DNA from: Gammaproteobacteria bacterium
Lineage (GTDB): Bacteria > Pseudomonadota > Gammaproteobacteria > JABCZS01
Assembly: GCA_044445605.1 (NCBI GenBank)
Contig: JBIOEA010000007.1
Location: 3,073-67,072, forward strand
DNA length: 64,000 nucleotides
Direction of reading: 5' to 3'
Part shown: in pieces, positions 17,722-63,276 of the stretch
Layout: each line of letters begins with the position of its first letter
Numbering within the stretch: the stretch's first letter is position 1
Notes under the pieces: model-generated
What the model was told of the DNA's origin: nothing
What the model saw: only the letters and a program-made list of their open reading frames with translations
Database searches by the model: none
Translations under genes and position numbers: made by a program

Positions 17722-17797
17722 AAGCATTACACGGATTATGACGATTCGTAATGGGCTAATATATATGGAATTCTTTCGCCAGATTCTCAGGTTAATC

Positions 17798-19006
17798 TCA
17801 ATTATGCTTTGCTTTTTTAGCGCCTGGCATCATTTTCTCGAGTAACAGCGTTTTAATTTCTTCATCCTGAGTGAGGCCATAAGCAGTATTTCCTTCCTTA
17901 TTTTTATGATGTACATTCGCGCCGTTGTCTAATAAAAATTTGACAGCAGGAAGGTCGCCTTGGCTAGCTGTAAGCATCAGCAATGTTGCCGAGGTGTCCG
18001 GGCATACAATATCAAAGTTTGCTCCTGCATCAGCAAGAGCGTGCAGAATAGTCATATCATTTGGATCATAACCAGCACGTCCTACATAACCATTATTATT
18101 GACGGGTCTATTGCGCAGTAACAAGTATAAAATCAGAGCAGGCGGGAGTTCGGTGTTTTGTATGTTAGGATCGAATTTTAATTCATGAAGTAAATAGACA
18201 ACATTCTCCATCCTGTGCTCTAGAATAGCGAGGGGCAGCGCTCTGCTGAATACCCTGAAATCTATTTGATTGTATTTTGCAACAATGTGTTTGATAAGGA
18301 CAAGATTGGAATGTGTCAGGATCATTTCAGCGGCCGTCATGGCTTTGTATTGGGTATTGAGCGCGCTTTTCTTGTGCATTTCTTCTAGCAAAATACACAC
18401 AATGTTGATATCAATCATGGGTGATGACAGCGCATAAAGAATAGGCGGCAGATTATTTTCGTCAGCTGCAGTAGCATCAGCGCCTGCTTCTAATAACAAT
18501 TTAATAACATCCATATTTTTTTCTTTGATAGCCATATTCAGTGGTGATTCTTTTCCCTTAAGGGCAGCAAGTTTTGCTAATAAGGTTGCAAATGAACTGC
18601 GGATGGTAGACATGCGCTTAGGTTCAATAGGCTGTTTTAGAGGACTAGATACTGACAGATCATAGAGATTAATATCATCATTTTCGCTAATGTATAATCT
18701 TCTATCGAGCCTGATATCAATCCAACGGATAAGTTTGTATTTTTCTTTATAAGATTCGATCTCGGCTTCGCGGTACAGATTTTCATAATAATTGGCTTTG
18801 AACGTATTGATGTCCTGCGAGGACGTGGTCGTTGCAGGGATCGTGGGGGCAGGGCAGGGCAAATTGGGGAAGTCCCGCTTGAATAGATTCATCCACCGAG
18901 GCCAATAGTCATCCGTACGTTCTTTGTGATTTTTGATTTTTTCAAGTATCTTAATGACCTCTATGCTGCTCAACTGGTTGAATATATTAGAGTATTGATT
19001 AATCAT
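17798..19006 (-). CDS. Ankyrin-repeat protein, copy 1 (possible degenerate F-box-like N-terminus)
   Basis: 402 aa. ANK repeats: SPLNMAIKEKNMDVIKLLLEAGADATAAD, and TLLMLTASQGDLPAVKFLLDNGANVHHKNKEGNTAY. The N-terminal ~100 aa are nearly identical to the paralogue at 20492..21709. Confidence 0.85.
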   Translation of the reverse strand: MINQYSNIFNQLSSIEVIKILEKIKNHKERTDDYWPRWMNLFKRDFPNLPCPAPTIPATTTSSQDINTFKANYYENLYREAEIESYKEKYKLIRWIDIRLDRRLYISENDDINLYDLSVSSPLKQPIEPKRMSTIRSSFATLLAKLAALKGKESPLNMAIKEKNMDVIKLLLEAGADATAADENNLPPILYALSSPMIDINIVCILLEEMHKKSALNTQYKAMTAAEMILTHSNLVLIKHIVAKYNQIDFRVFSRALPLAILEHRMENVVYLLHELKFDPNIQNTELPPALILYLLLRNRPVNNNGYVGRAGYDPNDMTILHALADAGANFDIVCPDTSATLLMLTASQGDLPAVKFLLDNGANVHHKNKEGNTAYGLTQDEEIKTLLLEKMMPGAKKAKHN

Positions 19007-19148: not shown

Positions 19149-20489
19149 ATGCATCAATTTTTCGGATCATCGTCCAAAGCGCCTCTCTTAAAAACAGATC
19201 GCGAGACACAAACGGCTGCTTTTCAAAGGGTAGCTACGTTTGCCAAAAAATTAGAAAAACAGGTTGAGCAATTAGTCATAAAATATCCTTCCCCTAGTAC
19301 GTTGGTACGCGTCCCTGCAGATAAATTAAAGAATACATTAACAGATTATCGCAGTAAACTCGCGCTCGCCGCGAAAAATAATAGTGATGTTGAGAAGATC
19401 AAAGTTCATTTAGATTTTTTGCATGAAGTTTTGTACGATGAAATACTTTTTTCATACATTACCGTCCCAATGTTTGTTGATAACCTCGGAGTCGCCTTGC
19501 GCAGAGGCGGCTATTTTCGCAAGATTTATCAATACGATCCCGCTTGTCTTGGTGAACCATTTAATTGGAAAGTAAGGAAAACCAATCAACATGGCAGGAC
19601 AGTTGGAAATTTTGTCATGCTAGAAGATTGGGAAAAAGATTTAAATCAGTTTTATAGAGATATTGTGTCAGATATGAAAAAGCTGCCTGAGACAGGCGCG
19701 CTAAATTCCGTTGATAAAATCATTTCAGATTGGGTTGATGAATATGAGTTCAAGGAACTACCTGATTTGCCACGTGAATATCCTCCTGCTGACAACATGC
19801 GTGAAGTGCAGAGGCAGCCTCAACAAAATAATGGCGTTGAACCTCCGCAATTTCAACAAGTGCAGAGGCAGCCTCAACAAAATAATGGCGTCGAACCTCC
19901 GCAATTTCAACCCTTCATCGCGTACGATGCGTATAAAGGAACTCTTTTCCTTACTCAAAGCATTGCTTGTATACTTGGGGGCTTTACAGGGGAAGATGTT
20001 TGTCGCCCTGAGAGTGAAGATGAACTTTCAGCGCAGGTATTTGCCTACGGGATTGGGTTAGTTATTGGCGCAGGTTTGCTGTGTGTGGGATACGTTAATC
20101 GCCAGCCTATCAAGGAACGCGTATCCTATTATGCTGACAGAACATGGCGGAATTTATTTCCTGCGCGTCCTGCTGCGGAAGATAGACCACCTATCTGGGA
20201 AAACCCTGGTATCCCATGGATATGGTATGCGGGGAGTGTCGCATCAGGCTCATGTGTGGGCATGACTATTGCGTCGATGACGGCAGGGAGTCTTGGATTG
20301 ACATCTGCTCAGCGCTCCGATACGGGTGAGGTGATCGGTTCAACGCTCACTTCCGAAGGGTGGATGTATTTCGCAGGGTTAACCGTTGGGGCCAGCCTAT
20401 TTTTCCTCGCTCTGCTCTGTCATAAATCCATTGAAACCGCATGCGAGCGCATAGGCGATAGAGTGCGTGGGAATAATCGCCCAGGTTAA
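19149..20489 (+). CDS. Hypothetical membrane protein, family 'M' copy 2 (soluble N-domain, Q/P-rich tandem repeat linker, multi-TM glycine-rich C-domain)
   Basis: 446 aa, paralogue of 12975..14039. Contains the 18-aa repeat VQRQPQQNNGVEPPQFQ(Q/P) x2 and several G/A-rich TM segments (GIGLVIGAGLLCVGYV, SVASGSCVGMTIASMTAGSLG, FAGLTVGASLFFLALLC). Confidence 0.6.
   Translation: MHQFFGSSSKAPLLKTDRETQTAAFQRVATFAKKLEKQVEQLVIKYPSPSTLVRVPADKLKNTLTDYRSKLALAAKNNSDVEKIKVHLDFLHEVLYDEILFSYITVPMFVDNLGVALRRGGYFRKIYQYDPACLGEPFNWKVRKTNQHGRTVGNFVMLEDWEKDLNQFYRDIVSDMKKLPETGALNSVDKIISDWVDEYEFKELPDLPREYPPADNMREVQRQPQQNNGVEPPQFQQVQRQPQQNNGVEPPQFQPFIAYDAYKGTLFLTQSIACILGGFTGEDVCRPESEDELSAQVFAYGIGLVIGAGLLCVGYVNRQPIKERVSYYADRTWRNLFPARPAAEDRPPIWENPGIPWIWYAGSVASGSCVGMTIASMTAGSLGLTSAQRSDTGEVIGSTLTSEGWMYFAGLTVGASLFFLALLCHKSIETACERIGDRVRGNNRPG
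19806..19913 (+). repeat. 54-bp tandem duplication (2 copies, a few mismatches) inside CDS
   Basis: gtgcagaggcagcctcaacaaaataatggcgt(t/c)gaacctccgcaatttcaac occurs twice back to back. Confidence 0.9.
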
Positions 20490-20491
20490 TC

Positions 20492-21709
20492 TCAATTAAG
20501 CTTTGCTTTTTTAGTGATGGGCATCATTTTCTCGAGTAAGAGCGTTTGGATTCCCTCATCCTCAGTAAGGTCGTAAGCGGTTTCCCCTTTCTTATTTTCA
20601 AGACGTACATTCGCGCCATTGTCCAATAAAAATTTGACAGCAGGAAGATCGTTTTGTTTGGTTGCAAGCATCAGCAAAGTGAGCGAAGATTCGGGTATTG
20701 CACTATCGAAGTTTGCTCCTGCATCAGCAAAAGCGCGCAGAATAGTCATATCTTCTGGATCATAGTCCGTACGGCCTACATAACCTTTATTTTCGACAGG
20801 TTTATGACGCAGAAGCAAGTATACATGCAGAAGGGATGGGCCATCATTGTTATGCATGTTAGGATCGAATTTTAATTCACGGAGTAAATAGCTAACATGC
20901 TCTGCTTTATGCTGCTCAATGGCGACGAGGATGGCAGTGGTGAATGCATTGAAATCTATGTGGGCGTATTTAGCGACAATGAGTTTTATATCGTCAATAT
21001 TGGGGTGTGTCAGGACCATTTCAGCGGCCGTCATGGTTTTGTATGGGATATTGAGTGCATTTCTCTTGTGCATTGCCTCCAACAAAATGCATACAATGTT
21101 GATATTAACCTCGGTTGATGTGAGTGCATAATAAATAGGCGGCTGATTATCGTTGTCTGCTGCCGTAGCATCGGCGCCTGCTTCTAATAACAATAGAATA
21201 GCATCCATGTATCCTTCTGTAATAGCGATATTAAGTGGTGATTCTTTTCTTTTAGGGTTGACAAGTTTTGTTAATATCCTTGCGCATGTGCGGCGGATGC
21301 GAGACATGAATTTAGGCGTAATAGGTTTTTCGTCACCACACTCATCATAATAACGCAGTTTCAGATCAAAGAGAGTATCATCCTGTTTGATAGAGTATAA
21401 TTTTTCATGGAGCTGGTCACCAATCCAAAAGATGAGTTTAATTTTATCTAAATAAGATTCGATCTCGGCTTCGCGGTACAGATTTTCATAATAATTAGCT
21501 TTGAACGTATTGATGTCCTGCGGGGACGTGGTCGTTGCAGGGATCGTGAGGGCAGGGCAGGGTAAATTGGGGAAGTCCCGCTTGAATAGATTCATCCATC
21601 GGGGCCAATAATCATCCGTACTTACTTTATCCTTTTTGTTTTTTTCAAGTATATTAATGACATGCATGCTGTCCAACTGGTTGAATATATTAGAATATTG
21701 ATTAATCAT
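20492..21709 (-). CDS. Ankyrin-repeat protein, copy 2 (paralogue of 17798..19006)
   Basis: 405 aa. N-terminus MINQYSNIFNQL..DDYWPRWMNLFKRDFPNLPCPA and C-terminus FLLDNGANV...LLLEKMMP..KKAK.N are shared with copy 1. The middle of the protein has diverged. Confidence 0.85.
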   Translation of the reverse strand: MINQYSNIFNQLDSMHVINILEKNKKDKVSTDDYWPRWMNLFKRDFPNLPCPALTIPATTTSPQDINTFKANYYENLYREAEIESYLDKIKLIFWIGDQLHEKLYSIKQDDTLFDLKLRYYDECGDEKPITPKFMSRIRRTCARILTKLVNPKRKESPLNIAITEGYMDAILLLLEAGADATAADNDNQPPIYYALTSTEVNINIVCILLEAMHKRNALNIPYKTMTAAEMVLTHPNIDDIKLIVAKYAHIDFNAFTTAILVAIEQHKAEHVSYLLRELKFDPNMHNNDGPSLLHVYLLLRHKPVENKGYVGRTDYDPEDMTILRAFADAGANFDSAIPESSLTLLMLATKQNDLPAVKFLLDNGANVRLENKKGETAYDLTEDEGIQTLLLEKMMPITKKAKLN

Positions 21710-21764: not shown

Positions 21765-21816
21765 CTGCTGACAGGGAGGTAGGAGCAGGGCAATCGCATC
21801 TAATTTCAGGACTGTA

Positions 21817-21937
21817 TCAGGCCGCAGGCCTGTGAGATGTAGCCCTGGGTTAGGAGCGCAACGTAACCCAGGGTAATATTCTAGGAGGCCAACGGCCTCA
21901 ACGTAAACATAAATAAAGAATGTAGCGCTGCAGGCGC
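21817..21937. repeat. Cluster of four REP-like hairpins: CAGGCC-gca-GGCCTG, CCCTGGGTTA-n11-TAACCCAGGG, GAGGCC-aac-GGCCTC, GCGC-tgcag-GCGC
   Basis: Read directly. The same hairpin modules occur in both arms of the element at 56129..58459 (in a different order), and the first also at 63244..63276. Confidence 0.8.
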
Positions 21938-21948
21938 GAAAGAAATTA

Positions 21949-22989
21949 TTAGCAGCAGGTATTTAATCTGCATGAATCTCCGCCTGGAAGAGATCTTTTA
22001 TTACCTAAGATTGGCTTATTTATTTCGAGATTCGGGTATTTCTTCTGAAGCTCCTCAAGCCGGTAAAATGAGCTAACCTCTAATTCATTTTTACCAAAAT
22101 CAATCTTTTTTAAGGCGCCGAGATTCCCTTTGTGAAGCAAAGCATCGACAATCGTGTCCACATCTCTTGATGAAAGAGTCATATCTGCCAAATGAAGATT
22201 TTCTAATGTATTATTTTGCTGCAATGCTCTTGAAAGCATGAGAGCTCCCTCACCCATCTTATTGTCTGATAAGACAAGTGTCTTCCAGCAAGTATTTACA
22301 GCAAGTACTTCAGCAATGTTAACGATCTCCTTTCCTTCATCATCAAGCGAATATTTGAAGCTGACCGCTGTTAATTTCTTGTTTTCTTTAAGCGCCTGCA
22401 TAATAGGCTCCATTTTGCTGCCTTTGCCGCAATAAAATGAAAATTCGCGCAAGGAAGCTGTCTTTAAAACGTCCGCTAATTGTTGAGATACATCATTCGT
22501 ATTTTTATCTATGTTTGTGCTCCCGTTAAAATCAAATGATTGTACGCGGTCTTGGCCAGCCAGCGCTGTGAGCAATGCAACGATAGAATGAGAAGCAAGG
22601 CCATTTGTATACATGTCTACGTGAACTAAACTATCTTGATGCTTGATAAGGTATGCATAAGCATCAACCGTTTGCGCTGGCAAATCGCGAATCTCTAGAA
22701 GGGCCATGCTTCGTGCGACAATGTTATATGGGCTGGCAGTGCCACCTTGAATATAAAAAAAATCCACCCATTTAGGATCTGCTACGGATGTTAATGATGT
22801 GTTATTGGAGAGATTTTTGTTAAGTTGAACGAGGTTTTCGGTGGCTGATACGTAATCTTTGTTATTGATATCTTTGTTTAGTGCTTCTTTTAAAGATTGT
22901 GCCGGTGTTTTCGATTGGGCATTATATGAATACATGTAGAAACCTCCAGTTTGCTCGTATATAACTGTTGTAGTATTTCCTTTTTGCAT
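21949..22989 (-). CDS. Leucine-rich repeat protein, ribonuclease-inhibitor (RNI/RanGAP-like) type, C-terminal -CC
   Basis: 346 aa. About 28-aa repeats: WKTLVLSDNKMGEGALMLSRALQQNNTLENLHLADMTLSSRDVDTIVDALL..LKKIDFGKNEL. The C-terminus is ...GGDSCRLNTCC. Confidence 0.7.
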   Translation of the reverse strand: MQKGNTTTVIYEQTGGFYMYSYNAQSKTPAQSLKEALNKDINNKDYVSATENLVQLNKNLSNNTSLTSVADPKWVDFFYIQGGTASPYNIVARSMALLEIRDLPAQTVDAYAYLIKHQDSLVHVDMYTNGLASHSIVALLTALAGQDRVQSFDFNGSTNIDKNTNDVSQQLADVLKTASLREFSFYCGKGSKMEPIMQALKENKKLTAVSFKYSLDDEGKEIVNIAEVLAVNTCWKTLVLSDNKMGEGALMLSRALQQNNTLENLHLADMTLSSRDVDTIVDALLHKGNLGALKKIDFGKNELEVSSFYRLEELQKKYPNLEINKPILGNKRSLPGGDSCRLNTCC

Positions 22990-23031
22990 GAGGCTGTCAA
23001 TGGGGACGTTATCTGCTCATGTTACAATCTA

Positions 23032-23172
23032 CCATTGACAATTTGGCGGTATTTGATAAGGTGTAGGTATGAAATCAATCCTGTTAACGGTCAATCGTCG
23101 CCTTGCGAGAACACTAAAACCCACGCTTAAAGAACGCGTCCTCTCTTGGGATGACTTCTTACTTGAGTTGTT
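23032..23172 (+). repeat. Direct repeat copy 1 (141 bp): duplicate of 37 bp of addB upstream region (candidate promoter) plus addB codons 1-34
   Basis: 140/141 identical to 24841..24981. The single c/t difference is in ccacg(c/t)ttaaag. Confidence 0.95.
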
Positions 23173-23212
23173 AAATTTGTGTCGTGAAGATTTTCAAAAG
23201 AATGGAGGATAA
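23069..23212 (+). pseudogene. Truncated 5' fragment of addB (47 codons, then stop)
   Basis: Translates as MKSILLTVNRRLARTLKPTLKERVLSWDDFLLEL, then diverges (LNLCREDFQKNGG*). Identical to the AddB N-terminus at 24878 except T20->L. Confidence 0.85.
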
Positions 23213-23264: not shown

Positions 23265-24797
23265 ATGTCCAATAAATTGCCAATCAACATTGACGATCTT
23301 TTGCGGCAGCGCACCGTTGAAGGTGAACGTATCGAGTATAAAACAGGCTGGAATCCGGATCCAATTCTGCGGACAATTTGCGCATTTGCCAATGATTTTG
23401 AAAACCTGGGTGGTGGTTATGTAGTGATTGGCCAAGGTTGTGATATAAATGGTCAACCAATGTTTCCACCGGTTGGCCTTGAAAATAATCAGCTCGATAA
23501 AATTCAGAAAGAATTGTTGGAGTATTGCCATTTAATTCAGCCGCCGTATTTCCCGGTGTTGAGTATCGAAAAAATTGCAGATCGTCACATAATGGTATTA
23601 TGGGCCCCTGGTGGGCAAAATCGTCCTTATAAAGTGCCATCCTCTGTCTCTAATAAGCATAAGATCTCGCATTACTACATTCGACGATATGCAAGTACGG
23701 TAGAGGCAAAAGGCGAAGCAGAGCAAGAATTATTGAGCTTAACGGCGAAAGTACCCTTTGATGATCGTTATGCGCAAACGGCTCGTATTACCGACTTATC
23801 GAAAGTACTGATGCAATCTTTTTTAACAGAGATTCGTAGCGATCTTGCTGATGATGCAGAAACATTATCCCTCGAAACACTGGGGCGTCAGATGAATGTA
23901 ATAGGTGGATCAGATGAAGCCCCGTTGCCAAAAAATGTGGGCTTGTTATTTTTCAACGACGCCCCTGATCGATTTTTTCCTTGGACACAAATTGATGTGT
24001 GCTGGTTCCCTGAAGGAGCAAGCGGTGATCGGTTTGATGAAAAAACATTTAAGGGTCCTTTGGCGCGGATGACGCGTGAAGCATTAGATTATATTCAGCG
24101 GAATTATTTATATGAGATAGTCGTGAAGCAAGATCAGAAGGCTGAAGCACAGCGATGTTGGAATTTCCCTTTTGCAGCCATAGAAGAGGCCGTTGTGAAT
24201 GCGGTATACCACCGCTCGTATGAAGAGCGTGAGCCAATCGAGGTGCGGATAAGTTATGATGAGCTGGTTGTCCTAAGTTTTCCAGGGCCAGACAGATCGA
24301 TCAAATTAGCTGATTTACAGGCAGGGCGTGCAGTAAGCCGACGGAATCGAAATCGCCGGATTGGCGAGTTTTTAAAAGAATTAGATTTAACCGAAGGCCG
24401 CTCTACCGGAGTGCCAAAGATCCTGAAAGTGATGGCAGTTAACGGCTCGCCTATGCCAATATTTGAAACGGATGGCGAACGGACATCTTTTTTGCTCAGG
24501 CTGCCTGTTCATCCGTTGGCGCTGGAGAGGGCTGCGGAACGCCAAGATCAGGCTACCATGGAAGTCACCATGGAAGTCACCATGGAAGTCATGGCATTAC
24601 TGAGGGTGGTGAAGGGGGAGACGAGTCGGCAGGTGCTACAAACGGCATTAGGGCTTAAAAATGTAGACCACTTCCGTAAAGCCTATATCTTACCGGCTAT
24701 TAAACAAGGTTATTTGGAAATGACCTTACCAGACATGCCTCAGAGCAGCAAGCAACGTTACCGTCTTACTGAGAAAGGAAGGAAAATTTTAGAATGA
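23265..24797 (+). CDS. Schlafen-like AlbA_2 domain / HATPase_c_4 / C-terminal wHTH protein, copy 2 (divergent)
   Basis: 510 aa with EGERIEYKTGWNPD..ICAFANDFENLGGGYVVIG (AlbA_2) and AIEEAVVNAVYHRSYEEREPIEVRISYDELVVLSFPGP (HATPase_c_4). The C-terminus QRYRLTEKGRKIL is wHTH-like. Contains an in-frame (TMEV)x3 repeat. Confidence 0.8.
   Translation: MSNKLPINIDDLLRQRTVEGERIEYKTGWNPDPILRTICAFANDFENLGGGYVVIGQGCDINGQPMFPPVGLENNQLDKIQKELLEYCHLIQPPYFPVLSIEKIADRHIMVLWAPGGQNRPYKVPSSVSNKHKISHYYIRRYASTVEAKGEAEQELLSLTAKVPFDDRYAQTARITDLSKVLMQSFLTEIRSDLADDAETLSLETLGRQMNVIGGSDEAPLPKNVGLLFFNDAPDRFFPWTQIDVCWFPEGASGDRFDEKTFKGPLARMTREALDYIQRNYLYEIVVKQDQKAEAQRCWNFPFAAIEEAVVNAVYHRSYEEREPIEVRISYDELVVLSFPGPDRSIKLADLQAGRAVSRRNRNRRIGEFLKELDLTEGRSTGVPKILKVMAVNGSPMPIFETDGERTSFLLRLPVHPLALERAAERQDQATMEVTMEVTMEVMALLRVVKGETSRQVLQTALGLKNVDHFRKAYILPAIKQGYLEMTLPDMPQSSKQRYRLTEKGRKILE
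24555..24594 (+). repeat. In-frame tandem 12-mer ACCATGGAAGTC x3.3
   Basis: Read directly. Encodes TMEVTMEVTMEVM. Confidence 0.9.
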
Positions 24798-24840
24798 GAT
24801 TAAAAGAGAAAGTTGTGGTAATCCTCGGTGGTGGCAGCTG

Positions 24841-24981
24841 CCATTGACAATTTGGCGGTATTTGATAAGGTGTAGGTATGAAATCAATCCTGTTAACGGT
24901 CAATCGTCGCCTTGCGAGAACACTAAAACCCACGTTTAAAGAACGCGTCCTCTCTTGGGATGACTTCTTACTTGAGTTGTT
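24841..24981 (+). repeat. Direct repeat copy 2 (141 bp), at the true addB 5' end
   Basis: See 23032..23172. The offset between copies is 1809 bp. Confidence 0.95.
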
Positions 24982-27355
24982 TGAATTGAACCGTGCCGCC
25001 ACGCAGTCATCATCATGGCGGTTATCTCCGATGCAGGAAAAAATGTTATGGGCCAAAGCCATGGACGATTTTCCTACGTTTGGTTTTGCCCGAGAACAAA
25101 CGATTGAATGTGCACGGGATGCTTATACCCTGGTCAAAGCCTATCAATTAAAATCAGCCTCATTAGTAGGATACAAAGAAGACAGCGATTTATTTGCAAA
25201 GGCCTTAGCGCGTTTTGAAACACAATGCAGCGAATTAAATGCTTTTGCTGGGGCTGCACTCATTGAACAATTATTGTTGTTTCCCTCCATGACATTGCCC
25301 TGTGATCATTTGTTATGTTATGGGTTTGATGAATGGACACCCGCGCAGCAATCGTTAATTGCGCAGTGGGAAAGGTTGGGTGTGACAATTGAACGGATGC
25401 CTCAGATATCCCGACGAGGAACAACGTGCAAGGTCATCGCAGAAGATGCGCACGATGAAATGCGCCGTGCCGCTCTGCAAGCTAAAGCCGCCTATGATCG
25501 AGGCGAAACAATGGCCATTGTCGTCCCTCAGTTACAAGATCAATGGTGTTTTGTTGAGCACTTATTAGCAGAGGTATTCAATCCAGATTTTTATTTCCCG
25601 GGTGTGCCCGCTAAAGATATTCCCTATAATATTTCATCGGGCGCATCGCTTGATAAACAACCTATTATTTATTGTCTTCTTGAAACATTTAAAACGTTAG
25701 ATAAAGAAACCAGCGTTCAAGCATGGAGCAATATCTTGCATTCACCCTATATCAAGGGAGGATGTACCGAGGCGGCTGCTCGGGCAGTTTTTGACATGGC
25801 ATTGCGTGATAAGCAATTGCTGACGATGACACTCAAGACTGTCCAATCAAATAGATTGATTCCGCCACTGTTTGCCTTGCAGTGTGTTCAGGTAGAAGCG
25901 TTCAAGAAATCATTATCATCACGCACGATGCGAGATTGGATCGTGTGGTTAAAAGATTGGATGGATGGTTGGGGCTGGGCGCAAGAGCGCACGCTTAACA
26001 GTGCAGAGTATCAATGCGTTGACACCTTGCATGAAGTGATTCCGAGTTTATATGCGCTGGATGCGATTCATCCCGCGTTCGCTTTCAACGCCTTCATCGA
26101 TGCTTTATATGGCTTATTAAAAAACACGTTATTCCAAACTGAAACGCAAGATAAACCCATTCAAGTATTAGGCTTGTTGGAAGCCGCGGGGTTATCATTC
26201 GATCATGTTTGGGTCATTGGGTTGACAGCAGATAATAATCCCGCGAAAGCCATGCCACATCCCTTTATTCCCACGCATGTGCAAGTCAGTCATGATATGC
26301 CCCACAGTACACCCGAGCGAGAATTGCGTGTGGCACAACGTTTACTCGAGCGTTTGATCACGGGTGCTAATGATGTTGTGCTTTCTTATGCGGCACAGGA
26401 TGAGAAGGGCGAGCCACAACTTGAGAGCCCGTTAATTGCTTCATTCCCCATCAAAGAAATAACAAATGAAACACCAGAACGCATGCCATTAGCCATTGCC
26501 CATGCGCGCGATTTACATGCATATGAAGATTGGGTTGGATTGCCACTGACGGGCCATCACTTGAAAGGCGGTAATTCAGTCTTGAAAGATCAAGCTGCCT
26601 GTCCACACGCGGGTTATTTGAAGCATCGATTGATGGCACGTTCACCTAAACCACCCGTGATGGGTTTAAGCGCTCCGCAGCAAGGAACCGTGATACACCG
26701 TGTACTGGAAACGCTTTGGGCATCGATGAAAAACCGTACAGGATTAATGCGGCTTGATGAAGATGCGCTCTCGCAGGAAATCACGAAACACATTCAAACG
26801 GTGCTGGATCAGTGGGAGCCATCGTTATCTGCCTCAAATAAACTCATTGAATCCAAACGCATCTTGGATATTGTGACCGCATGGTTGACCTTTGAAAAAT
26901 CACGTCCCGATTTTGCCATCGAAAGTTTGGAGAAAAAGGTGGAAGTCACGTTGGGTGAATTGACGCTGACATTATCCATGGACCGCGTGGACTGCATTGG
27001 AGAGAATCAATTTTTCTTGATGGATTATAAAACAGGCGAAGCAAGTGTGGCTGATTGGGATATGCCGCGCATGAACGAACCGCAGCTTCCACTTTATGCT
27101 GCATTCATGACGCCTACTCCTGTGGGAATGGCGTTTGCGCGTTTGAAAAAGAACAGTATAGGCTTAGAAGGTTTGAGCAGCATTGAAAACTGGGATGAAT
27201 TATTAGCAAACTTTTGTCAAGATTTATTGATGCTCTCTGAAGAAGTGCAAGCGGGTTATGGCGCAACCGAACCTAAATATGCGCAACGCACCTGCGATAA
27301 GTGTGATTTGGTTTCGGGTTGTCGCTTTCATACAGGAGGTGTTTATGAAGGATGA
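24878..27355 (+). CDS. addB: AddB-type helicase-nuclease subunit (PD-(D/E)XK nuclease with Fe-S cysteine cluster)
   Basis: 825 aa. The C-terminus has the RecB-family nuclease motif MDYKTGE, flanked by a CPHAG... cysteine and C-x2-C-x5-C (CDKCDLVSGC). Its stop overlaps the addA start. Confidence 0.8.
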   Translation: MKSILLTVNRRLARTLKPTFKERVLSWDDFLLELFELNRAATQSSSWRLSPMQEKMLWAKAMDDFPTFGFAREQTIECARDAYTLVKAYQLKSASLVGYKEDSDLFAKALARFETQCSELNAFAGAALIEQLLLFPSMTLPCDHLLCYGFDEWTPAQQSLIAQWERLGVTIERMPQISRRGTTCKVIAEDAHDEMRRAALQAKAAYDRGETMAIVVPQLQDQWCFVEHLLAEVFNPDFYFPGVPAKDIPYNISSGASLDKQPIIYCLLETFKTLDKETSVQAWSNILHSPYIKGGCTEAAARAVFDMALRDKQLLTMTLKTVQSNRLIPPLFALQCVQVEAFKKSLSSRTMRDWIVWLKDWMDGWGWAQERTLNSAEYQCVDTLHEVIPSLYALDAIHPAFAFNAFIDALYGLLKNTLFQTETQDKPIQVLGLLEAAGLSFDHVWVIGLTADNNPAKAMPHPFIPTHVQVSHDMPHSTPERELRVAQRLLERLITGANDVVLSYAAQDEKGEPQLESPLIASFPIKEITNETPERMPLAIAHARDLHAYEDWVGLPLTGHHLKGGNSVLKDQAACPHAGYLKHRLMARSPKPPVMGLSAPQQGTVIHRVLETLWASMKNRTGLMRLDEDALSQEITKHIQTVLDQWEPSLSASNKLIESKRILDIVTAWLTFEKSRPDFAIESLEKKVEVTLGELTLTLSMDRVDCIGENQFFLMDYKTGEASVADWDMPRMNEPQLPLYAAFMTPTPVGMAFARLKKNSIGLEGLSSIENWDELLANFCQDLLMLSEEVQAGYGATEPKYAQRTCDKCDLVSGCRFHTGGVYEG

Positions 27356-54953: not shown

Positions 54954-55176
54954 TGGGCGAACGACGTCTGTCTCTATACCCATCGCACTTGAAGAAGCGG
55001 CTTAGTGCCTAATCAACTTTAGGTTCAAACGGGCTACGCCCACACCCGTTCGTATTTAAATAGTTATAGATAACGAACAGCTTCTAAACATTATACTACA
55101 TGGGTATGCTGAACCTAAGTATAATGGGTAGAACTAATGATATAATGTCATTTTTAAACACATAGAGTGGTTGCGC

Positions 55177-56112
55177 ATGATCATCAGCATTGATTGGGAC
55201 CATACATTCAGAAATGTTACAGGTATTGATCTGAATATTTTAGCACTCGTTTTATACGCTCAATCTAAGCAGATTCCGGTGGGTTTAACAACACATCGTG
55301 ATCTTGAAAACACAACATTATATACATTATATCATTGGCAGCATGGTCCTCACTCAAATGATGAGCGAGATGCATTGGCCGCAGCGATTCATTATTGGGA
55401 TGAAAATTTATTTAAACCCTTGAACATTCGGTTTGATTTCATTAACGCAAGGTATCAGCCTCGGTGCAAGGGTATAAATTATTATCAACATTCCATCTTG
55501 CCTTTAGAAAAAAGACTGGCAGAGGAAATTCTTGTCAATGGCATTTTAAATGCACCCGAGGTTGTGAGAAATAAAATAGGTGAGTATGCCGTTCCAGAAG
55601 AATTGCTTGATAACAACGAATTCAAGGAAGCGCAAATATTCTGGCTCAGCAATATGTATCAGCACGTTCATGACCATGCCACGCTCTATCATATTGATGA
55701 TAGTCGCGATGTTTGCGATTTTCTTCCGGAAAAACTCACGCAATTGAAAAACGGATTAACGGTAAAAACTATTTTATATCGAAGTTCGCCGCTTTTTTCA
55801 AATAAAGCATGCCTCGAATGCCTTTCTGACATTGGCTTATTAGACGATATAAACGATTTTATCAATCAGCATGAAATCGAAAACCTGATCCAAGACCATC
55901 GGAAGTGCTTGGCAGTTGTCATGGCGGTTTTGCAAATGGACGGCTTAAGTGACGAAGTGATTTCAACCATTGAGGATGTGTTGCATGAAATTGGGGAATC
56001 AATGAATTCAGATACAGACAAGCTCCATAAATTCGTTGAAAAACAATGCATGGAAACTCGAAAAAATAAGCATCCAATTTGTATTATGCCAAACTCTTTA
56101 ACCTTTAGATAG
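55177..56112 (+). CDS. Hypothetical protein with HAD-phosphatase-like motifs in the N-terminal half
   Basis: ISIDWDHT (motif I, DxDxT), GLTTHRD (motif II, T) and LYHIDDSRD (motif IV, DDxxD). The C-terminal ~120 aa are unassigned. I prefer the ATG at 55177 over the TTG at 55171. Confidence 0.5.
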   Translation: MIISIDWDHTFRNVTGIDLNILALVLYAQSKQIPVGLTTHRDLENTTLYTLYHWQHGPHSNDERDALAAAIHYWDENLFKPLNIRFDFINARYQPRCKGINYYQHSILPLEKRLAEEILVNGILNAPEVVRNKIGEYAVPEELLDNNEFKEAQIFWLSNMYQHVHDHATLYHIDDSRDVCDFLPEKLTQLKNGLTVKTILYRSSPLFSNKACLECLSDIGLLDDINDFINQHEIENLIQDHRKCLAVVMAVLQMDGLSDEVISTIEDVLHEIGESMNSDTDKLHKFVEKQCMETRKNKHPICIMPNSLTFR

Positions 56113-56128
56113 CGTAACCTTTTACGAT

Positions 56129-56190
56129 CACAAGATCTGACAACGAAGAACTCTTCGCCCCCTTTACAAAGCTGACCGTTACCCATAAGT
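56129..56190. repeat. Left terminal inverted repeat (62 nt)
   Basis: cacaagatctgacaacgaagaactcttcgccccctttacaaagctgaccgttacccataagt. Confidence 0.9.
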
Positions 56191-56830
56191 CGCCATCAGG
56201 GCCTGCTCATGAATAATTTTTGCGTTTAAACCAGGGCAATCGCATCTAGGAGGCCAACGGCCTCAAAGATTTTAGCCCAGGGCAAGCGAGCGCAGCGAAG
56301 CGTCGCCCTGGGTAAGATATGACAGAGGAGGTAGCGCTGAAAGCGCGGTGCGCCAAGGTAAACCTGGCAAATCTTGCGGGTGAAAGTCCTGCCATAGAAG
56401 GAGAACCGATTCCACTATGTAGCGAGTCTTGCGTCATTGTAGGTAACGAAAGTGACGAAGCGTAGACAGCGAAACTGGCGAGCCGAAACCCATGGTGGGT
56501 GAACGCGACAAGCCTCGAAATCAGCGTCCTTCGGGAGAGCAGATAAGATCGCGCTCTTAGCAAGCAACAGAGAGCATTCAGCAGCTAAATCGGGATGAAT
56601 GCACTCTCTCCCCGGGGTTATGAGCGTCAGCGAGCCAGTAGAGATATGCCGAGGAACTTGGGAAGTCCATAAATTTCTACAGGGACAGTAGTAGACGGAG
56701 TACAAGCGGATGAACCGCAAGGCTCAGTCGAAGGGTTTATGGATGGCGGAGTCGATCGTAGTAGCGAGGAAGCGAGTAATGATCGTGGAGCGAAGGGTCG
56801 GCAGATAGTGATAGCGAACGAGGGACACTT

Positions 56831-58162
56831 ATGACCGTAAATACAGAAGACGGGCACCAAAAGAAAACAAAACTCGAACGCATAGGCGAGCGAGCAAAGC
56901 ACAGACCCGATACAGTGTTCAATAACATTGGGCACGTTATCGATCTGGATTTGCTCAGGGAATGTTACCGAGAGTTGGATGGAAAGAAGGCGATCGGCAC
57001 AGATGGCGTAACCAAGGCAGCATATGGGGAAAAGCTAGAGGGGAACTTGCAAGCTCTTTTGGCCAGACTGCATAAGCGCGCATACAAACCTCAAGCCTCG
57101 AGGCTGGTAGAAATACCGAAAGAAGACGGAAGCACAAGACCACTGGCGATCTCTTGTTTTGAAGACAAGATCGTACAGCTGGCGATGTCGAAGATTCTGA
57201 CGGCGGTATTCGAACCAGAATTTCTTCCGTGTTCGTATGGATACCGAGAAGGGGTGAATGGGCATGAAGCACTGCGAGCCTTGATGAAACACAGCAATGC
57301 GAACCCCGATGGCATAACGATAGAAATTGACCTGAGGAAATACTTCAATTCAATACCCCACCATCATTTGATGGAGATATTGGAGAAGAAGATCTCAGAC
57401 AAATATATACTGCGATTGGCTTTCAGGCTGATGCGCTCACCGATGATGGTGAATGGAAAAGCAGAGCTGAATAAAGTCGGATGCCCGCAGGGTTCGATCG
57501 TGGCGCCGGTCTTATCAAACATCTACCTAAACTACGTGATCGATAACTGGTTTGCGAAAATCAGGGAAAATCACTTCAGGGGTAGGGCAGAGATGGTGAG
57601 ATTTGCAGATGACATGGTGTTTGTGTTTCAAATTAAAGATGACGCGGAAAGATTTTACAAAGTTCTGCCCAAACGACTAGAGAAATATGGATTGACATTA
57701 CACGAAGAGAAATCGAGTATGATCAGATCCGGCAGCAAGGCGGCAGCCGAGGCTGAAAAGAGAGGCGAGCGCTTACCCACATATAAATTCTTAGGATTTA
57801 CATGCTACTGGGGAAAGAGTCGAAATGGATGGTTTAGGTTGAAATACAAAAGCCGATCGGATCGATTTGCGGGGAAGCTCAATGGTCTGCGGAAACACCT
57901 CAAAGAGAATCTAAATCAGAAGACGCACATAATCCTAGAACAGGTAAAGAGGATAGTCATGGGATGGGCGAACTATCACGCGATCTCAGACAATCGAGGG
58001 CAAGTAGAGGCGTTTATTCACTGGAGTAAACGAGCGCTATTTGGCTGGATAAACCGGAAGGGAGGAAGGCGAAAGATGAGCTGGATAAAATTTGAAGAAC
58101 TTATGGAACGTGTAAACTACCCGAAGAGCTTTAGAACAACATCGATGTTCACGACTCGCTGA
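56831..58162 (+). CDS. Group II intron reverse transcriptase/maturase (no endonuclease domain evident)
   Basis: 443 aa. RT motifs are IDLRKYFNSIPH, CPQGSIVAPVLSNIYLNYV and VRFADDMVFVF (YADD-type). The maturase X domain has GWANYH. The protein ends about 60 aa after domain X. Confidence 0.92.
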   Translation: MTVNTEDGHQKKTKLERIGERAKHRPDTVFNNIGHVIDLDLLRECYRELDGKKAIGTDGVTKAAYGEKLEGNLQALLARLHKRAYKPQASRLVEIPKEDGSTRPLAISCFEDKIVQLAMSKILTAVFEPEFLPCSYGYREGVNGHEALRALMKHSNANPDGITIEIDLRKYFNSIPHHHLMEILEKKISDKYILRLAFRLMRSPMMVNGKAELNKVGCPQGSIVAPVLSNIYLNYVIDNWFAKIRENHFRGRAEMVRFADDMVFVFQIKDDAERFYKVLPKRLEKYGLTLHEEKSSMIRSGSKAAAEAEKRGERLPTYKFLGFTCYWGKSRNGWFRLKYKSRSDRFAGKLNGLRKHLKENLNQKTHIILEQVKRIVMGWANYHAISDNRGQVEAFIHWSKRALFGWINRKGGRRKMSWIKFEELMERVNYPKSFRTTSMFTTR

Positions 58163-58180
58163 ATAACTTAGCACTATCGG

Positions 58181-58213
58181 GAGCCGGATGCGGGAAATCC
58201 GCAAGTCCGGTTC
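58181..58213 (+). ncRNA. Group II intron catalytic domain V
   Basis: GAGCCGGAUGCGGGAAAUCCGCAAGUCCGGUUC has the AGC triad, a 2-nt bulge and a GAAA-type loop. It is near-identical in architecture to the consensus GAGCCGUAUGCG..GAAA..CGCACGUACGGUUC. Confidence 0.9.
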
Positions 58214-58397
58214 TGAGGAGGGGTTTACCAGGGCAACCTGGCAGATCTACTCACCCCAGAACTACTTACGCGCTTTCAGCGCTCAATATATTGTTCCATT
58301 ATTACCCTGGGTTACGGTGCGCTGCGCGCACCTAACCCAGGGCTAAAATCTTAGAGGCCTGCGGCCTAAAATTAAAACTGCAGAGTAGCGCATCTTT

Positions 58398-58459
58398 ACT
58401 TATGGGTAACGCTCAGCTTTGTAAAGGGGGCGAAGAGTTCTTCGTTGTCAGATCTTGTG
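58398..58459. repeat. Right terminal inverted repeat (62 nt)
   Basis: Its reverse complement equals the left TIR except for one base (gctgaCcgtt versus gctgaGcgtt). Confidence 0.9.
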
Positions 58460-58478
58460 GTAGTGAACGATTACCTTA

Positions 58479-59096
58479 TTACTTGTTCATCTTCATACGC
58501 TTCCTATTATCGCGATCATCATCCTTATCATCATCGTTTCCATCCTTAATATTCTGATTTGCTGCGATTGAAATTTTAGCATTATGAGCATCAATTGCCT
58601 CTATAACAGTTTGCTTTGGATCATCTCCGCGTTTTAATACGGCGATACATAAACCTGTCCATACATTTATATCAGAATCAAATTTCATCTTTTTAAAAAT
58701 CATTGTATGAGCTGGGTATAAAAACTCTCCACTCCCTATAGCCATGCGCTTACAACGATTGTCACAATATTTTTCATACTTCCCATCAGGATCAGTGACC
58801 ACGCAAAACTCAGGGGTGTTGTCAGGGGTTTTGAAGGCGCGATTTTTTCTGGCAGTTTTTTCGTCTTCATCGCTCATCGTACTGATAACACGCATTGCAA
58901 TATTGCGCGCTTTATAAGCCGAAAGGGCTTCGATGTGACCTTCCAAATCTTTAGTGCAACCCTTAAACTTTAGCGTTGTCCATTCATTTTCTCTTCCTGC
59001 ATATAATGGATTACCAGCACCCGGTAGATAAGCGAGTACCAGGTAATCACTCTCCAGCGTCGCCGGAATATCACATATGCTATTTAATGTTGGCAT
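58479..59096 (-). CDS. Hypothetical protein with a strongly charged C-terminal tail
   Basis: 205 aa. The tail is DGNDDDKDDDRDNRKRMKMNK. Overlaps the upstream GNAT gene by 17 nt, which suggests an operon. Confidence 0.5.
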   Translation of the reverse strand: MPTLNSICDIPATLESDYLVLAYLPGAGNPLYAGRENEWTTLKFKGCTKDLEGHIEALSAYKARNIAMRVISTMSDEDEKTARKNRAFKTPDNTPEFCVVTDPDGKYEKYCDNRCKRMAIGSGEFLYPAHTMIFKKMKFDSDINVWTGLCIAVLKRGDDPKQTVIEAIDAHNAKISIAANQNIKDGNDDDKDDDRDNRKRMKMNK

Positions 59097-63159: not shown

Positions 63160-63243
63160 TTATGGCGAATTAATTTAGCTTTGCTTTTTTGGCACATCTT
63201 TCTAGGGATCTACAACATCTGATGAAATTCTATCTGATTTTTA

Positions 63244-63276
63244 GGGCTGTATCAGGCCGCAGGCCTGACACAGCCC
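63244..63276. repeat. REP-like hairpin GGGCTGT-a-TCAGGCC-gca-GGCCTGA-c-ACAGCCC (probable bidirectional terminator)
   Basis: Read directly. It abuts the stop codon (63277..63279) of the minus-strand gene. The core TCAGGCCGCAGGCCTG is identical to 21817..21832. Confidence 0.7.

Follow-up and report, generated by a model that had tools for sequence, protein, structure and literature searches.

A IIB-like group II intron probably retrohomed by base pairing into the tip of a dispersed palindromic repeat in a gammaproteobacterial contig

Overview of the intron and its site

We analysed a 64,000-nt stretch of DNA (hereafter, the window) from contig JBIOEA010000007.1 of a Gammaproteobacteria bacterium (assembly GCA_044445605.1), in which a group II intron (56348-58255, forward strand) interrupts a palindromic element at 56109-58479. 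In our judgement it is probable that this apparently intact intron, which encodes no endonuclease and has a IIB-like RNA, most likely of class E, retrohomed by base pairing into the GCGC hairpin at the tip of a ~470-bp palindrome belonging to a dispersed repeat family. The anatomy of the intron, the pairings of its exon-binding sites (EBS) with the intron-binding sites (IBS) in the exons and their covariation, the palindrome, and the membership of the element in the family were all observed directly.

Structure and boundaries of the intron

The intron is 1908 nt long and runs from 5' GTGCG at 56348 to 3' CTACTCACC at 58255. The Rfam models RF02005 (group-II-D1D4-6) and RF00029 (domain V/VI model) matched 56383-56626 and 58179-58255 with 117 and 51 bits, respectively. 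Domains V and VI (58181-58252, forward strand) fold with z = -4.5; a 5-nt GAAAU loop and a 2-nt bulge are seen in domain V (58181-58213), and the bulged A of domain VI is at 58249. Domain IV contains an open reading frame (ORF; 56831-58162, forward strand) for a 443-aa intron-encoded protein with reverse transcriptase (RT) and maturase (X) domains, matched by TIGR04416 (300.7, cut-off 300), RVT_1 (2.9e-31) and GIIM (9e-06). The protein terminates soon after the maturase domain and therefore lacks a DNA-binding/endonuclease (D/En) domain, and its catalytic motif, in the region of residue 257, reads FADD instead of the usual YADD. The 5' GTGCG, domain V, the bulged A of domain VI, the RT ORF in domain IV and the EBS1-IBS1 pairing described below are the features by which membership among group II introns is recognised.

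The 5' end at 56348 is supported by the EBS1-IBS1 pairing. The 3' end at 58255 (CTACTCACC/CCAG; slashes mark junctions) is where the Rfam model ends, and this position is homologous to the 3' junctions of relatives that were fixed independently: by three copies in one metagenome-assembled genome (MAG; L006-8), by two sites with the same RT (L073/L074, …CTCAAC/), and by the unoccupied mirror copy of the target in locus L004, from which both intron junctions can be read. This leaves 13 nt (58256-58268) between the 3' end and the right-hand hairpin and places the intron on the 5' margin of the apical loop, not exactly on the dyad. An earlier note, made from the letters of the window, had described a complete group II intron with GTGCG at 56348, an RT ORF and domain V at 58181-58213, which Rfam, the protein profiles and the fold all confirmed. 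It had also let the intron fill the space up to the right-hand hairpin, which the 3' end at 58255 corrects, and had put it exactly at the dyad of the palindrome; the apical position holds, at ~6 nt off the axis.

In composition, the part of the window that covers the intron (56001-58000) has an A-over-T skew of +0.21 to +0.24, and the rest of the window lies mostly between -0.2 and +0.08. This skew is consistent with a foreign, A-rich sense strand.

Architecture of the palindromic element

The outer arms of the element are reverse-complementary at 61 of 62 positions in their cores (56129-56190 and 58398-58459). A repeat finder extended the pair to 56109-56190 and 58398-58479 (82 nt, 90%), where it reaches both stop codons of the neighbouring genes, which are convergent (55171-56112 on the forward and 58479-59096 on the reverse strand). 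The arms thus form terminal inverted repeats of the kind that characterises MITEs (miniature inverted-repeat transposable elements), and GCCCCCTTTACAAAGCTGA in the left arm is similar to the outer arm of the family copies in MAG JABCZS01 (see below).

Inward of the arms, the same hairpin modules occur in mirrored order. A GGCC hairpin, GAGGCCAACGGCCTC (56250-56264), is mirrored by AGGCCTGCGGCCT (58355-58367), and the identical 15-mer recurs at 21886-21900 of the window and in L004. Next comes a module on the forward strand (56265-56313) made up of the leader AAAGATTTTAG and a CCCAGGG...CCCTGGG hairpin (56276-56312), the latter mirrored at 58305-58342. The innermost hairpin, AGCGCTGAAAGCGCG (56333-56347, forward strand), forms the end of the 5' exon and is mirrored by CGCGCTTTCAGCGCT (58269-58283; 15/15). 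The apical loop, CCAGAACTACTTA (58256-58268), is the start of the 3' exon, and the mirror hairpin (58265-58283), read on the reverse strand, is AGCGCTGAAAGCGCG/TAAG and is unoccupied. On the forward strand of the right arm, the CCCTGGG...CCCAGGG hairpin is followed by CTAAAATCTTAG and then by the AGGCCTGCGGCCT hairpin; this unit (58305-58367) has the layout of the Acido-Lenti-1 motif, with a score below threshold.

A global alignment of the left flank with the reverse complement of the right flank matched in 176 of 207 columns with a few indels. With the intron removed, the joined flanks folded into a single 473-nt hairpin (dG -260 kcal/mol), and the structure of the intron flanks is far above that of shuffled sequences (z = -9.4). 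The reverse-complementary outer arms, the mirrored modules, each of which was found, and the location between two convergent genes, as given by ORF coordinates and strands, had all been described correctly. The ~410-bp perfect-armed palindrome proposed at the same time is indeed a palindrome, with a length of ~470 bp from stop codon to stop codon and with imperfect arms that include indels.

Target recognition

Domain I was aligned across 72 related loci that we fetched. EBS1 (CGCGCU, 56550-56555, forward strand) lies in a terminal loop and pairs with IBS1 (AGCGCG, positions -6 to -1 of the 5' exon) at all six positions. EBS2 (UCAGCGU, 56521-56527, forward strand) lies in an asymmetric internal loop of the domain I d3 stem (DId3), and its UCAGCG(U) pairs with IBS2, (G)CGCTGA at -14 to -8, over 6-7 bp. 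The A at 56620 (forward strand) was identified as EBS3 because, in 20 of 24 relatives, the base aligned with it is complementary to the 3' exon's first base. The pairing with the 5' exon that was to be expected if the intron begins at 56348, as the earlier note had placed it, was thus found for both EBS1 and EBS2.

These pairings covary across the relatives. The EBS1 loop and the six bases that close the 5' exon are complementary in essentially every one of ~25 relatives (for example, TGCAAT with ATTGCA, TAGCCT with AGGCTA, CTTCCA with TGGAAG, and TGCTCC with GGAGCA). EBS2 pairs in the same exon register (-14/-13 to -8) in the window intron, L004, L048/L026, L001, L006/7, L023, L028 and L045. 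As a permutation control, the exons of 26 distinct introns were shuffled, and none of 5000 shuffles reached the observed mean pairing, for EBS1 and EBS2 alike.

The intron therefore reads 5'-CGCTGA-A-AGCGCG/N, a sequence in which IBS2 forms one half of the small hairpin and IBS1 the other. EBS2, EBS1 and EBS3 (an A, which expects T) jointly spell the family consensus, AGCGCTGAAAGCGCG/T. Judging from these sequence comparisons, the target appears to be read through RNA-DNA base pairing and not by the shape of the hairpin.

A perfect second site exists on the minus strand of the same element, from 58283 to 58265, only 13 nt from the intron; EBS2, EBS1 and EBS3 all match it, and it is empty. It may remain so because a second, inverted intron would form a 1.9-kb perfect palindrome. 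The hairpin at 21922-21938, which had been put forward as an empty homing site, turned out to fit poorly and is near-cognate at best: the hairpin at 21924-21938, AGCGCTGCAGGCGCG/A, has a G-U pair at -6 (IBS1) and mismatches at -8 (IBS2) and +1. At the occupied site, the 3' exon starts with CCAGA at 58256, in place of the TAAGA found in the mirror arm and in the family consensus, and the apical loop, at 13 nt, is the shortest seen (28-73 nt elsewhere). It is possible that the 3' junction was altered, by deletion or substitution, during or after insertion.

The repeat family

The 19-mer AGCGCTGAAAGCGCGTAAG was used as the search key for further copies of the element. It gave at least seven dispersed matches in the gammaproteobacterial MAG JABCZS01, in which at least seven copies lack an intron and share both module order and linkers with the window element. 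Their usual layout comprises the outer arm GCTTGCCCCCTTTGTAAACTGA…, the GGCC hairpin, the TAGCCCAGGG…CCCTGGGTAGG hairpin, AGCGCTGAAAGCGCG and TAAG-loop-CTTG, followed in the second half by CGCGCTTwCAGCGCT and the same modules mirrored. Outer arms are missing from some copies, one copy comprises half an element, and one locus consists of an array of half-elements. This array (L223:5593-6514) contains ~5 half-elements with GGCC, CCCAGGG and GCGC hairpins, arranged head-to-tail or head-to-head at a spacing of ~150-190 nt, and lies downstream of two tRNA genes. The flanks of the window intron and the JABCZS01 copies can be aligned through successive modules and linkers and into part of the outer arm. 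The sequence AGCGCTGAAAGCGCG/T is present in every JABCZS01 match and is also found empty in L073 and on the minus strand of the window.

Within the window, a hidden Markov model (HMM) of the family matched 56155-56347, ending exactly at the 5' intron junction, and then 58262-58433. It also matched a partial, non-palindromic copy at 21797-21950, which includes the near-cognate hairpin discussed above. An isolated GGCC-hairpin module (CAGGCCGCAGGCCTG plus leader, 63239-63267) lies between convergent ORFs and is 93% identical to 21804-21832. The window accordingly contains one full copy of the element and two partial ones. That the target belongs to a dispersed, multi-copy family, as had been proposed, is borne out by the related MAG JABCZS01 and by these partial copies.

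The family resembles Acido-Lenti-1 (RF01687 in Rfam), whose seed alignment has the same two-hairpin unit in many copies per genome and whose 2010 description noted the motif near group II introns (Weinberg 2010, PMC2864571). One JABCZS01 copy (L226) matched RF01687 with 37.8 bits against a gathering score of 37, and copies from a Sumerlaeia MAG reached 41-46 bits. The arms of the window element itself stayed below the threshold of 37 (best 14.7 bits, a partial match), and a scan of these arms against Rfam at the E-value threshold gave nothing convincing. Matches of locus L212 to miRNA-type Rfam families were rejected as generic long-hairpin artefacts. Taken together, the family appears to be composed of nested hairpin modules, to be of the repetitive extragenic palindromic (REP) or MITE-like kind, and to be related to Acido-Lenti-1; the comparison also suggests that the Acido-Lenti-1 'RNA motif' is better regarded as a REP-like repeat.

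Palindromes of the same layout, with a TAGCCCAGGG...CCCTGGG hairpin, AGCGCTGAAAGCGCGTAAG, a variable centre and the mirror image, were also observed in multiple copies in distant phyla, namely, in Verrucomicrobiota MAGs (L203, L205, L215, L219, L221, L224 and L230), Petrimonas (L207, L218, L220 and L229), Sumerlaeia (L206, L214 and L222), Pyrinomonadaceae (L231) and L213. The identical 19-mer in these copies is due to the search key, which does not explain the shared flanking modules. No group II introns were detected in the 8-kb pieces around these palindromes. In the genome contig collection, which excludes the source genome, a 26-mer from the outer arm had 0 matches, and the 15-mer GAGGCCAACGGCCTC had, among the matches listed, only chance matches in GC-rich genomes.

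Related introns and their sites

The closest relative for which DNA was available is a sister intron, L073/L074 (RT 88% identical), with EBS1 UGGGCU. It is located inside the 5' arm of a CCCAGGG-type hairpin module, in two different copies. The window holds two uninterrupted targets of this sister intron: one at 56265-56285 on the plus strand, within the left CCCAGGG module (AAAGATTTTAGCCCA/GGGCAAG), and the other at 58336-58356 on the minus strand, within the Acido-Lenti-1-like unit of the right arm. The L004 intron (RT 71%) occupies an outer arm of a palindrome of 265 bp, the mirror site of which is vacant. A further intron (76%; L343:230-2132 and L344:231-2133) lies at the outer edge of another type of palindromic repeat, GTCATTGCGAAC...GTTCGCAATGAC, where its target is AAACGTAACTATTC/A. 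The far arm of L344 holds an empty mirror target (GAATAGTTAGGG), and the two contigs share a common 5' flank and are different inside the palindrome.

Strongly structured flanks were found only at the window intron, L004, L343/344 and L002, with L073/74 added by inspection. A preference for palindromes across the whole clade was therefore rejected. In a separate observation, at P0020 (place _3OIe3yw), a 75%-identical intron lies between a gene for a 322-aa Y1_Tnp (+DnaA_C-like) protein and a DDE transposase gene; the Y1_Tnp gene is upstream of the intron and is similar to REP transposases of the REP-associated tyrosine transposase (RAYT) type.

Possible spread of the intron and alternative explanations

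The intron would have entered the innermost GCGC hairpin module by retrohoming. Because the intron-encoded protein has no endonuclease domain, cDNA synthesis was presumably primed by the nascent strand at a replication fork, as in other endonuclease-less introns. The intron lies on the G-rich, presumably leading, strand, to which we gave no weight since, according to the literature, endonuclease-less introns can prime from the leading as well as the lagging strand. Situated between convergent genes, a conserved module of a selfish multi-copy repeat would offer many harmless landing sites, and close relatives appear to have shifted their EBS sequences to match other parts of palindromic repeats of this kind. 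We infer the mode of priming, the actual spread through the family and the class E label from these comparisons.

It is plausible that the intron exploits a dispersed repeat: the relatives and the fit of its EBS sequences to the family consensus support this, while spread within its own genome, where one copy is seen, would be hypothetical. The earlier note had proposed that the intron could spread by riding the repeat family, and the support for this is indirect. The sister intron in another module and the many perfect targets in one MAG speak for it; a second filled site was not found among metagenome contigs, and the RT was seen on one contig only.

Several observations weigh against homing into, and spread through, a mobile repeat family. 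The exact RT was found on one contig only, and a scan of metagenome contigs from the Joint Genome Institute (JGI) for the filled junction GCGCTGAAAGCGCG/GTGCG returned 30 matches, all of them coincidences in coding sequences with no intron. Look-ups of the RT and of the proteins of both flanking genes by exact sequence gave no records. One intron copy is evident within the 64-kb window, which was the scope of the search in the source genome, and every JABCZS01 family copy is empty. EBS3 (A) matches the family-consensus T at +1 and mismatches the resident C, which would weaken both exon ligation and reverse splicing at the present site. Some other relatives at 73-76% identity (L075-80 and L349-352) have ordinary, non-palindromic targets. 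With regard to the repeat itself, no direct repeat indicating a target-site duplication was present at the ends of the window copy, L211, L212 or L227, and no RAYT or other transposase was linked to the palindromic element (the window was not scanned for Y1_Tnp). For this reason, 'REP-like / MITE-like repeat family' is a description and not a family assignment.

Much of this would also be expected if the insertion were a dead-end, one-off event, possibly the result of horizontal transfer from a module-rich genome, in which the repeat plays no continuing role for an intron that is not spreading. The single contig with the exact RT, a 67-kb contig that assembled straight through the intron, the lack of a second filled junction among the JGI contigs, the EBS3 mismatch, the empty perfect mirror site 13 nt away, the emptiness of all 7 JABCZS01 copies and the strong A-over-T skew of the intron stretch relative to its surroundings all fit such an event. 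Nevertheless, we regard it as rather unlikely. EBS2, EBS1 and EBS3 spell the family consensus and not merely the local sequence; another module holds the sister intron in two different copies; for many close homologues, the contig has about the size of the intron, as is typical for multi-copy elements; and both the ORF and the ribozyme appear intact.

Intron class

Class C (IIC) introns lack EBS2, have an IBS1 of 3-4 bp, and target a terminator or attC stem-loop; the hallmarks of classes E and F are an alpha' in the DId3 terminal loop, a 5-nt domain V loop, an ORF-less RNA of 450-700 nt, and EBS2 (PMC3753933). In the window intron, alpha' (AAUCGG, 56588-56593) lies in the terminal loop and pairs with CCGAUU (56406-56411), and the RNA without the ORF is ~576 nt long (483 + 93). 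It combines IIB-like RNA hallmarks with EBS1 and EBS2, as expected for class E; these hallmarks are common to class F. The seed of RF02005 includes sequences from Photorhabdus luminescens, Clostridium beijerinckii, Syntrophomonas wolfei and Chlorobium phaeobacteroides, all four of which harbour published IIE introns, and it includes none from Dechloromonas aromatica, where a IIF intron resides, an overlap that is an indirect sign of IIE versus IIF since those genomes hold other introns too. Several relatives of the window intron are in Photorhabdus and Xenorhabdus, and the nearest introns are in MAGs labelled Legionellaceae, Gammaproteobacteria and others. Given the absence of the features that define class C, the presence of the class E/F hallmarks and the hosts in the RF02005 seed, we consider the window intron a IIB-like RNA that most likely belongs to class E. 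A point against this label is that it is based on RNA hallmarks and on the overlap between the Rfam seed and IIE hosts and not on a phylogeny with reference proteins.

The earlier note had taken the intron for a class C intron, which would recognise a DNA stem-loop as a structure and insert just 3' of it. This has some appeal, as the intron begins one base past GCGC-TGAAA-GCGC and its protein has no endonuclease domain. In addition, the RTs of solved structure closest in sequence are those of class C (7uim, 5hhl and 6ar1; 1e-35 to 1e-32), ahead of IIB (2e-24) and IIA (1e-23). The last of these points is, however, explained as a sampling effect, because the PDB contains no solved RT of classes D, E or F, and the rest of the evidence makes the class C assignment very improbable. 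The 6-bp EBS1 and the covarying EBS2 contradict the absence of EBS2 and the 3-4 bp IBS1 of class C, and the ORF-less RNA of ~576 nt compares with 412 nt in the O. iheyensis IIC intron. The RNA carries IIE/IIF hallmarks and matches the D1D4-6 model. At 50-64% RT identity, relatives lack an upstream hairpin and are inserted in unstructured sites (flank z-scores near 0), so insertion at terminator or attC stem-loops is not a property of the lineage. Finally, no terminator was predicted at the insertion site, where the mini-hairpin has only 4-5 bp and no T-run.

It is scarcely conceivable that the inverted repeats belong to a composite, transposon-like carrier that moves together with the intron, as the long, near-perfect outer arms (61/62) placed symmetrically around it might suggest, given that intron-free copies have the same arms and modules, related introns have entirely different flanks, the match to the family HMM breaks off exactly at the 5' junction and picks up again 7 nt beyond the 3' end, and the intron boundaries are set by EBS/IBS pairing.

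Significance

The case indicates that a hairpin next to an intron does not make it a IIC intron, since a IIB-like intron can read one half of a hairpin as IBS2 and the other as IBS1. It also offers a clean example of a group II homing site that is a conserved module of a non-coding palindromic repeat, together with a sister intron retargeted to a neighbouring module. As such, it shows a possible route by which introns could reach many harmless sites and escape site saturation, and it offers a testable reason for the proximity of Acido-Lenti-1 to group II introns.

More tentatively, repeats of the Acido-Lenti-1 type might represent a recurrent homing niche for class E-like introns that retune EBS1, EBS2 and EBS3 to different modules (GCGC here, CCCAGGG in the sister intron, and outer arms in others), an idea that we rate as distinctly less than even. 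If true, it would account for the association between the motif and group II introns, which was reported without an explanation in 2010, and the repeats and introns would be a co-evolving selfish pair across several phyla.

Other features of the window

Two ankyrin-repeat paralogues (17788-18972 and 20482-21675; ORFs 17798-19006 and 20492-21709, minus strand in each case) share blocks of at least 300 nt at 82-86% nucleotide identity; such genes hint at a host-associated lifestyle. The LeuS protein encoded in the window is 89%, 83% and 80% identical to metagenome proteins and only ~61% to proteins of named gammaproteobacterial genera; we regard the host as an uncultured gammaproteobacterium and do not assign it to Legionella. 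Between them, ORF 19149-20489, which had no Pfam match, contains two tandem 54-nt units (19804-19911) that are 98% identical and amount to an in-frame duplication of 18 aa. A 158-nt direct repeat (23029-23186 and 24838-24995, 95% identical) flanks the gene at 23265-24797, the product of which is a protein with Schlafen AlbA_2, HATPase_c_4 and a Fic-like C-terminal part. The second copy of the repeat overlaps the start of an AddB-like gene (24878-27355), and the arrangement looks like a gene insertion that duplicated the 5' region of its target.

Comparison with known systems

The closest known counterparts of the window intron are the class E introns Cl.be.I2 and P.l.I1 (Toro 2002; Simon 2008; Nagy 2013, PMC3753933). 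It shares with them an endonuclease-less RT/maturase, a compact IIB-like RNA with alpha' in the DId3 terminal loop and a 5-nt domain V loop, pairing of EBS1 and EBS2 with the 5' exon, and a match to the D1D4-6 model. It differs from the published class E introns in homing to a conserved hairpin module that belongs to a family of palindromic repeats and in having FADD instead of YADD as its RT motif, and the class of the window intron was set by RNA features and not by phylogeny. IIC and IIC-attC introns (Robart 2007; Quiroga 2008; Leon and Roy 2009) are similar in that they lack an endonuclease domain and lie directly 3' of a stem-loop in an imperfect palindrome, in intergenic positions between convergent genes; in contrast to them, the window intron base-pairs with 13 nt of hairpin sequence, and its distant relatives need no hairpin.

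Homing of introns into other repeated selfish DNA is known behaviour, and the present case extends it in a way that is tidy and not revolutionary. The class D intron RmInt1 and its relatives home into ISRm2011-2 and other repeated mobile elements, with diverging target specificity (PMC4615759, PMC4181065). Like the window intron, RmInt1 is endonuclease-less, uses EBS1, EBS2 and EBS3, and has its site in a multi-copy selfish element, and in both cases related introns have been retargeted to different sites. The differences are that the window target is a non-coding repeat of hairpin modules and not an insertion sequence, that the intron is of another class, and that one copy was seen.

With respect to the repeat, the window element shares with Acido-Lenti-1 (RF01687; PMC2864571) the order of CCYAGGG...CCCTRGG, CTA, an A/T-rich linker and a small GC hairpin, as well as a multi-copy, intergenic and often arrayed occurrence. 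It differs in that its first hairpin is longer, its units are inverted around two GCGC hairpins, extra outer arms are present, and its host is a gammaproteobacterium and not a member of Acidobacteria or Lentisphaerae. It also resembles REP sequences, bacterial interspersed mosaic elements (BIMEs), REP doublets forming hairpins (REPINs) and MITEs (Tobes and Pareja 2006, PMC1525189), which are mosaics of GC-rich palindromic modules in intergenic regions, often between convergent genes. REP elements are known landing pads for insertion sequences, and in P. putida KT2440, two of nine group II intron copies are REP-associated (PMC1525189); the window element, unlike a REP doublet, is a single long nested palindrome.

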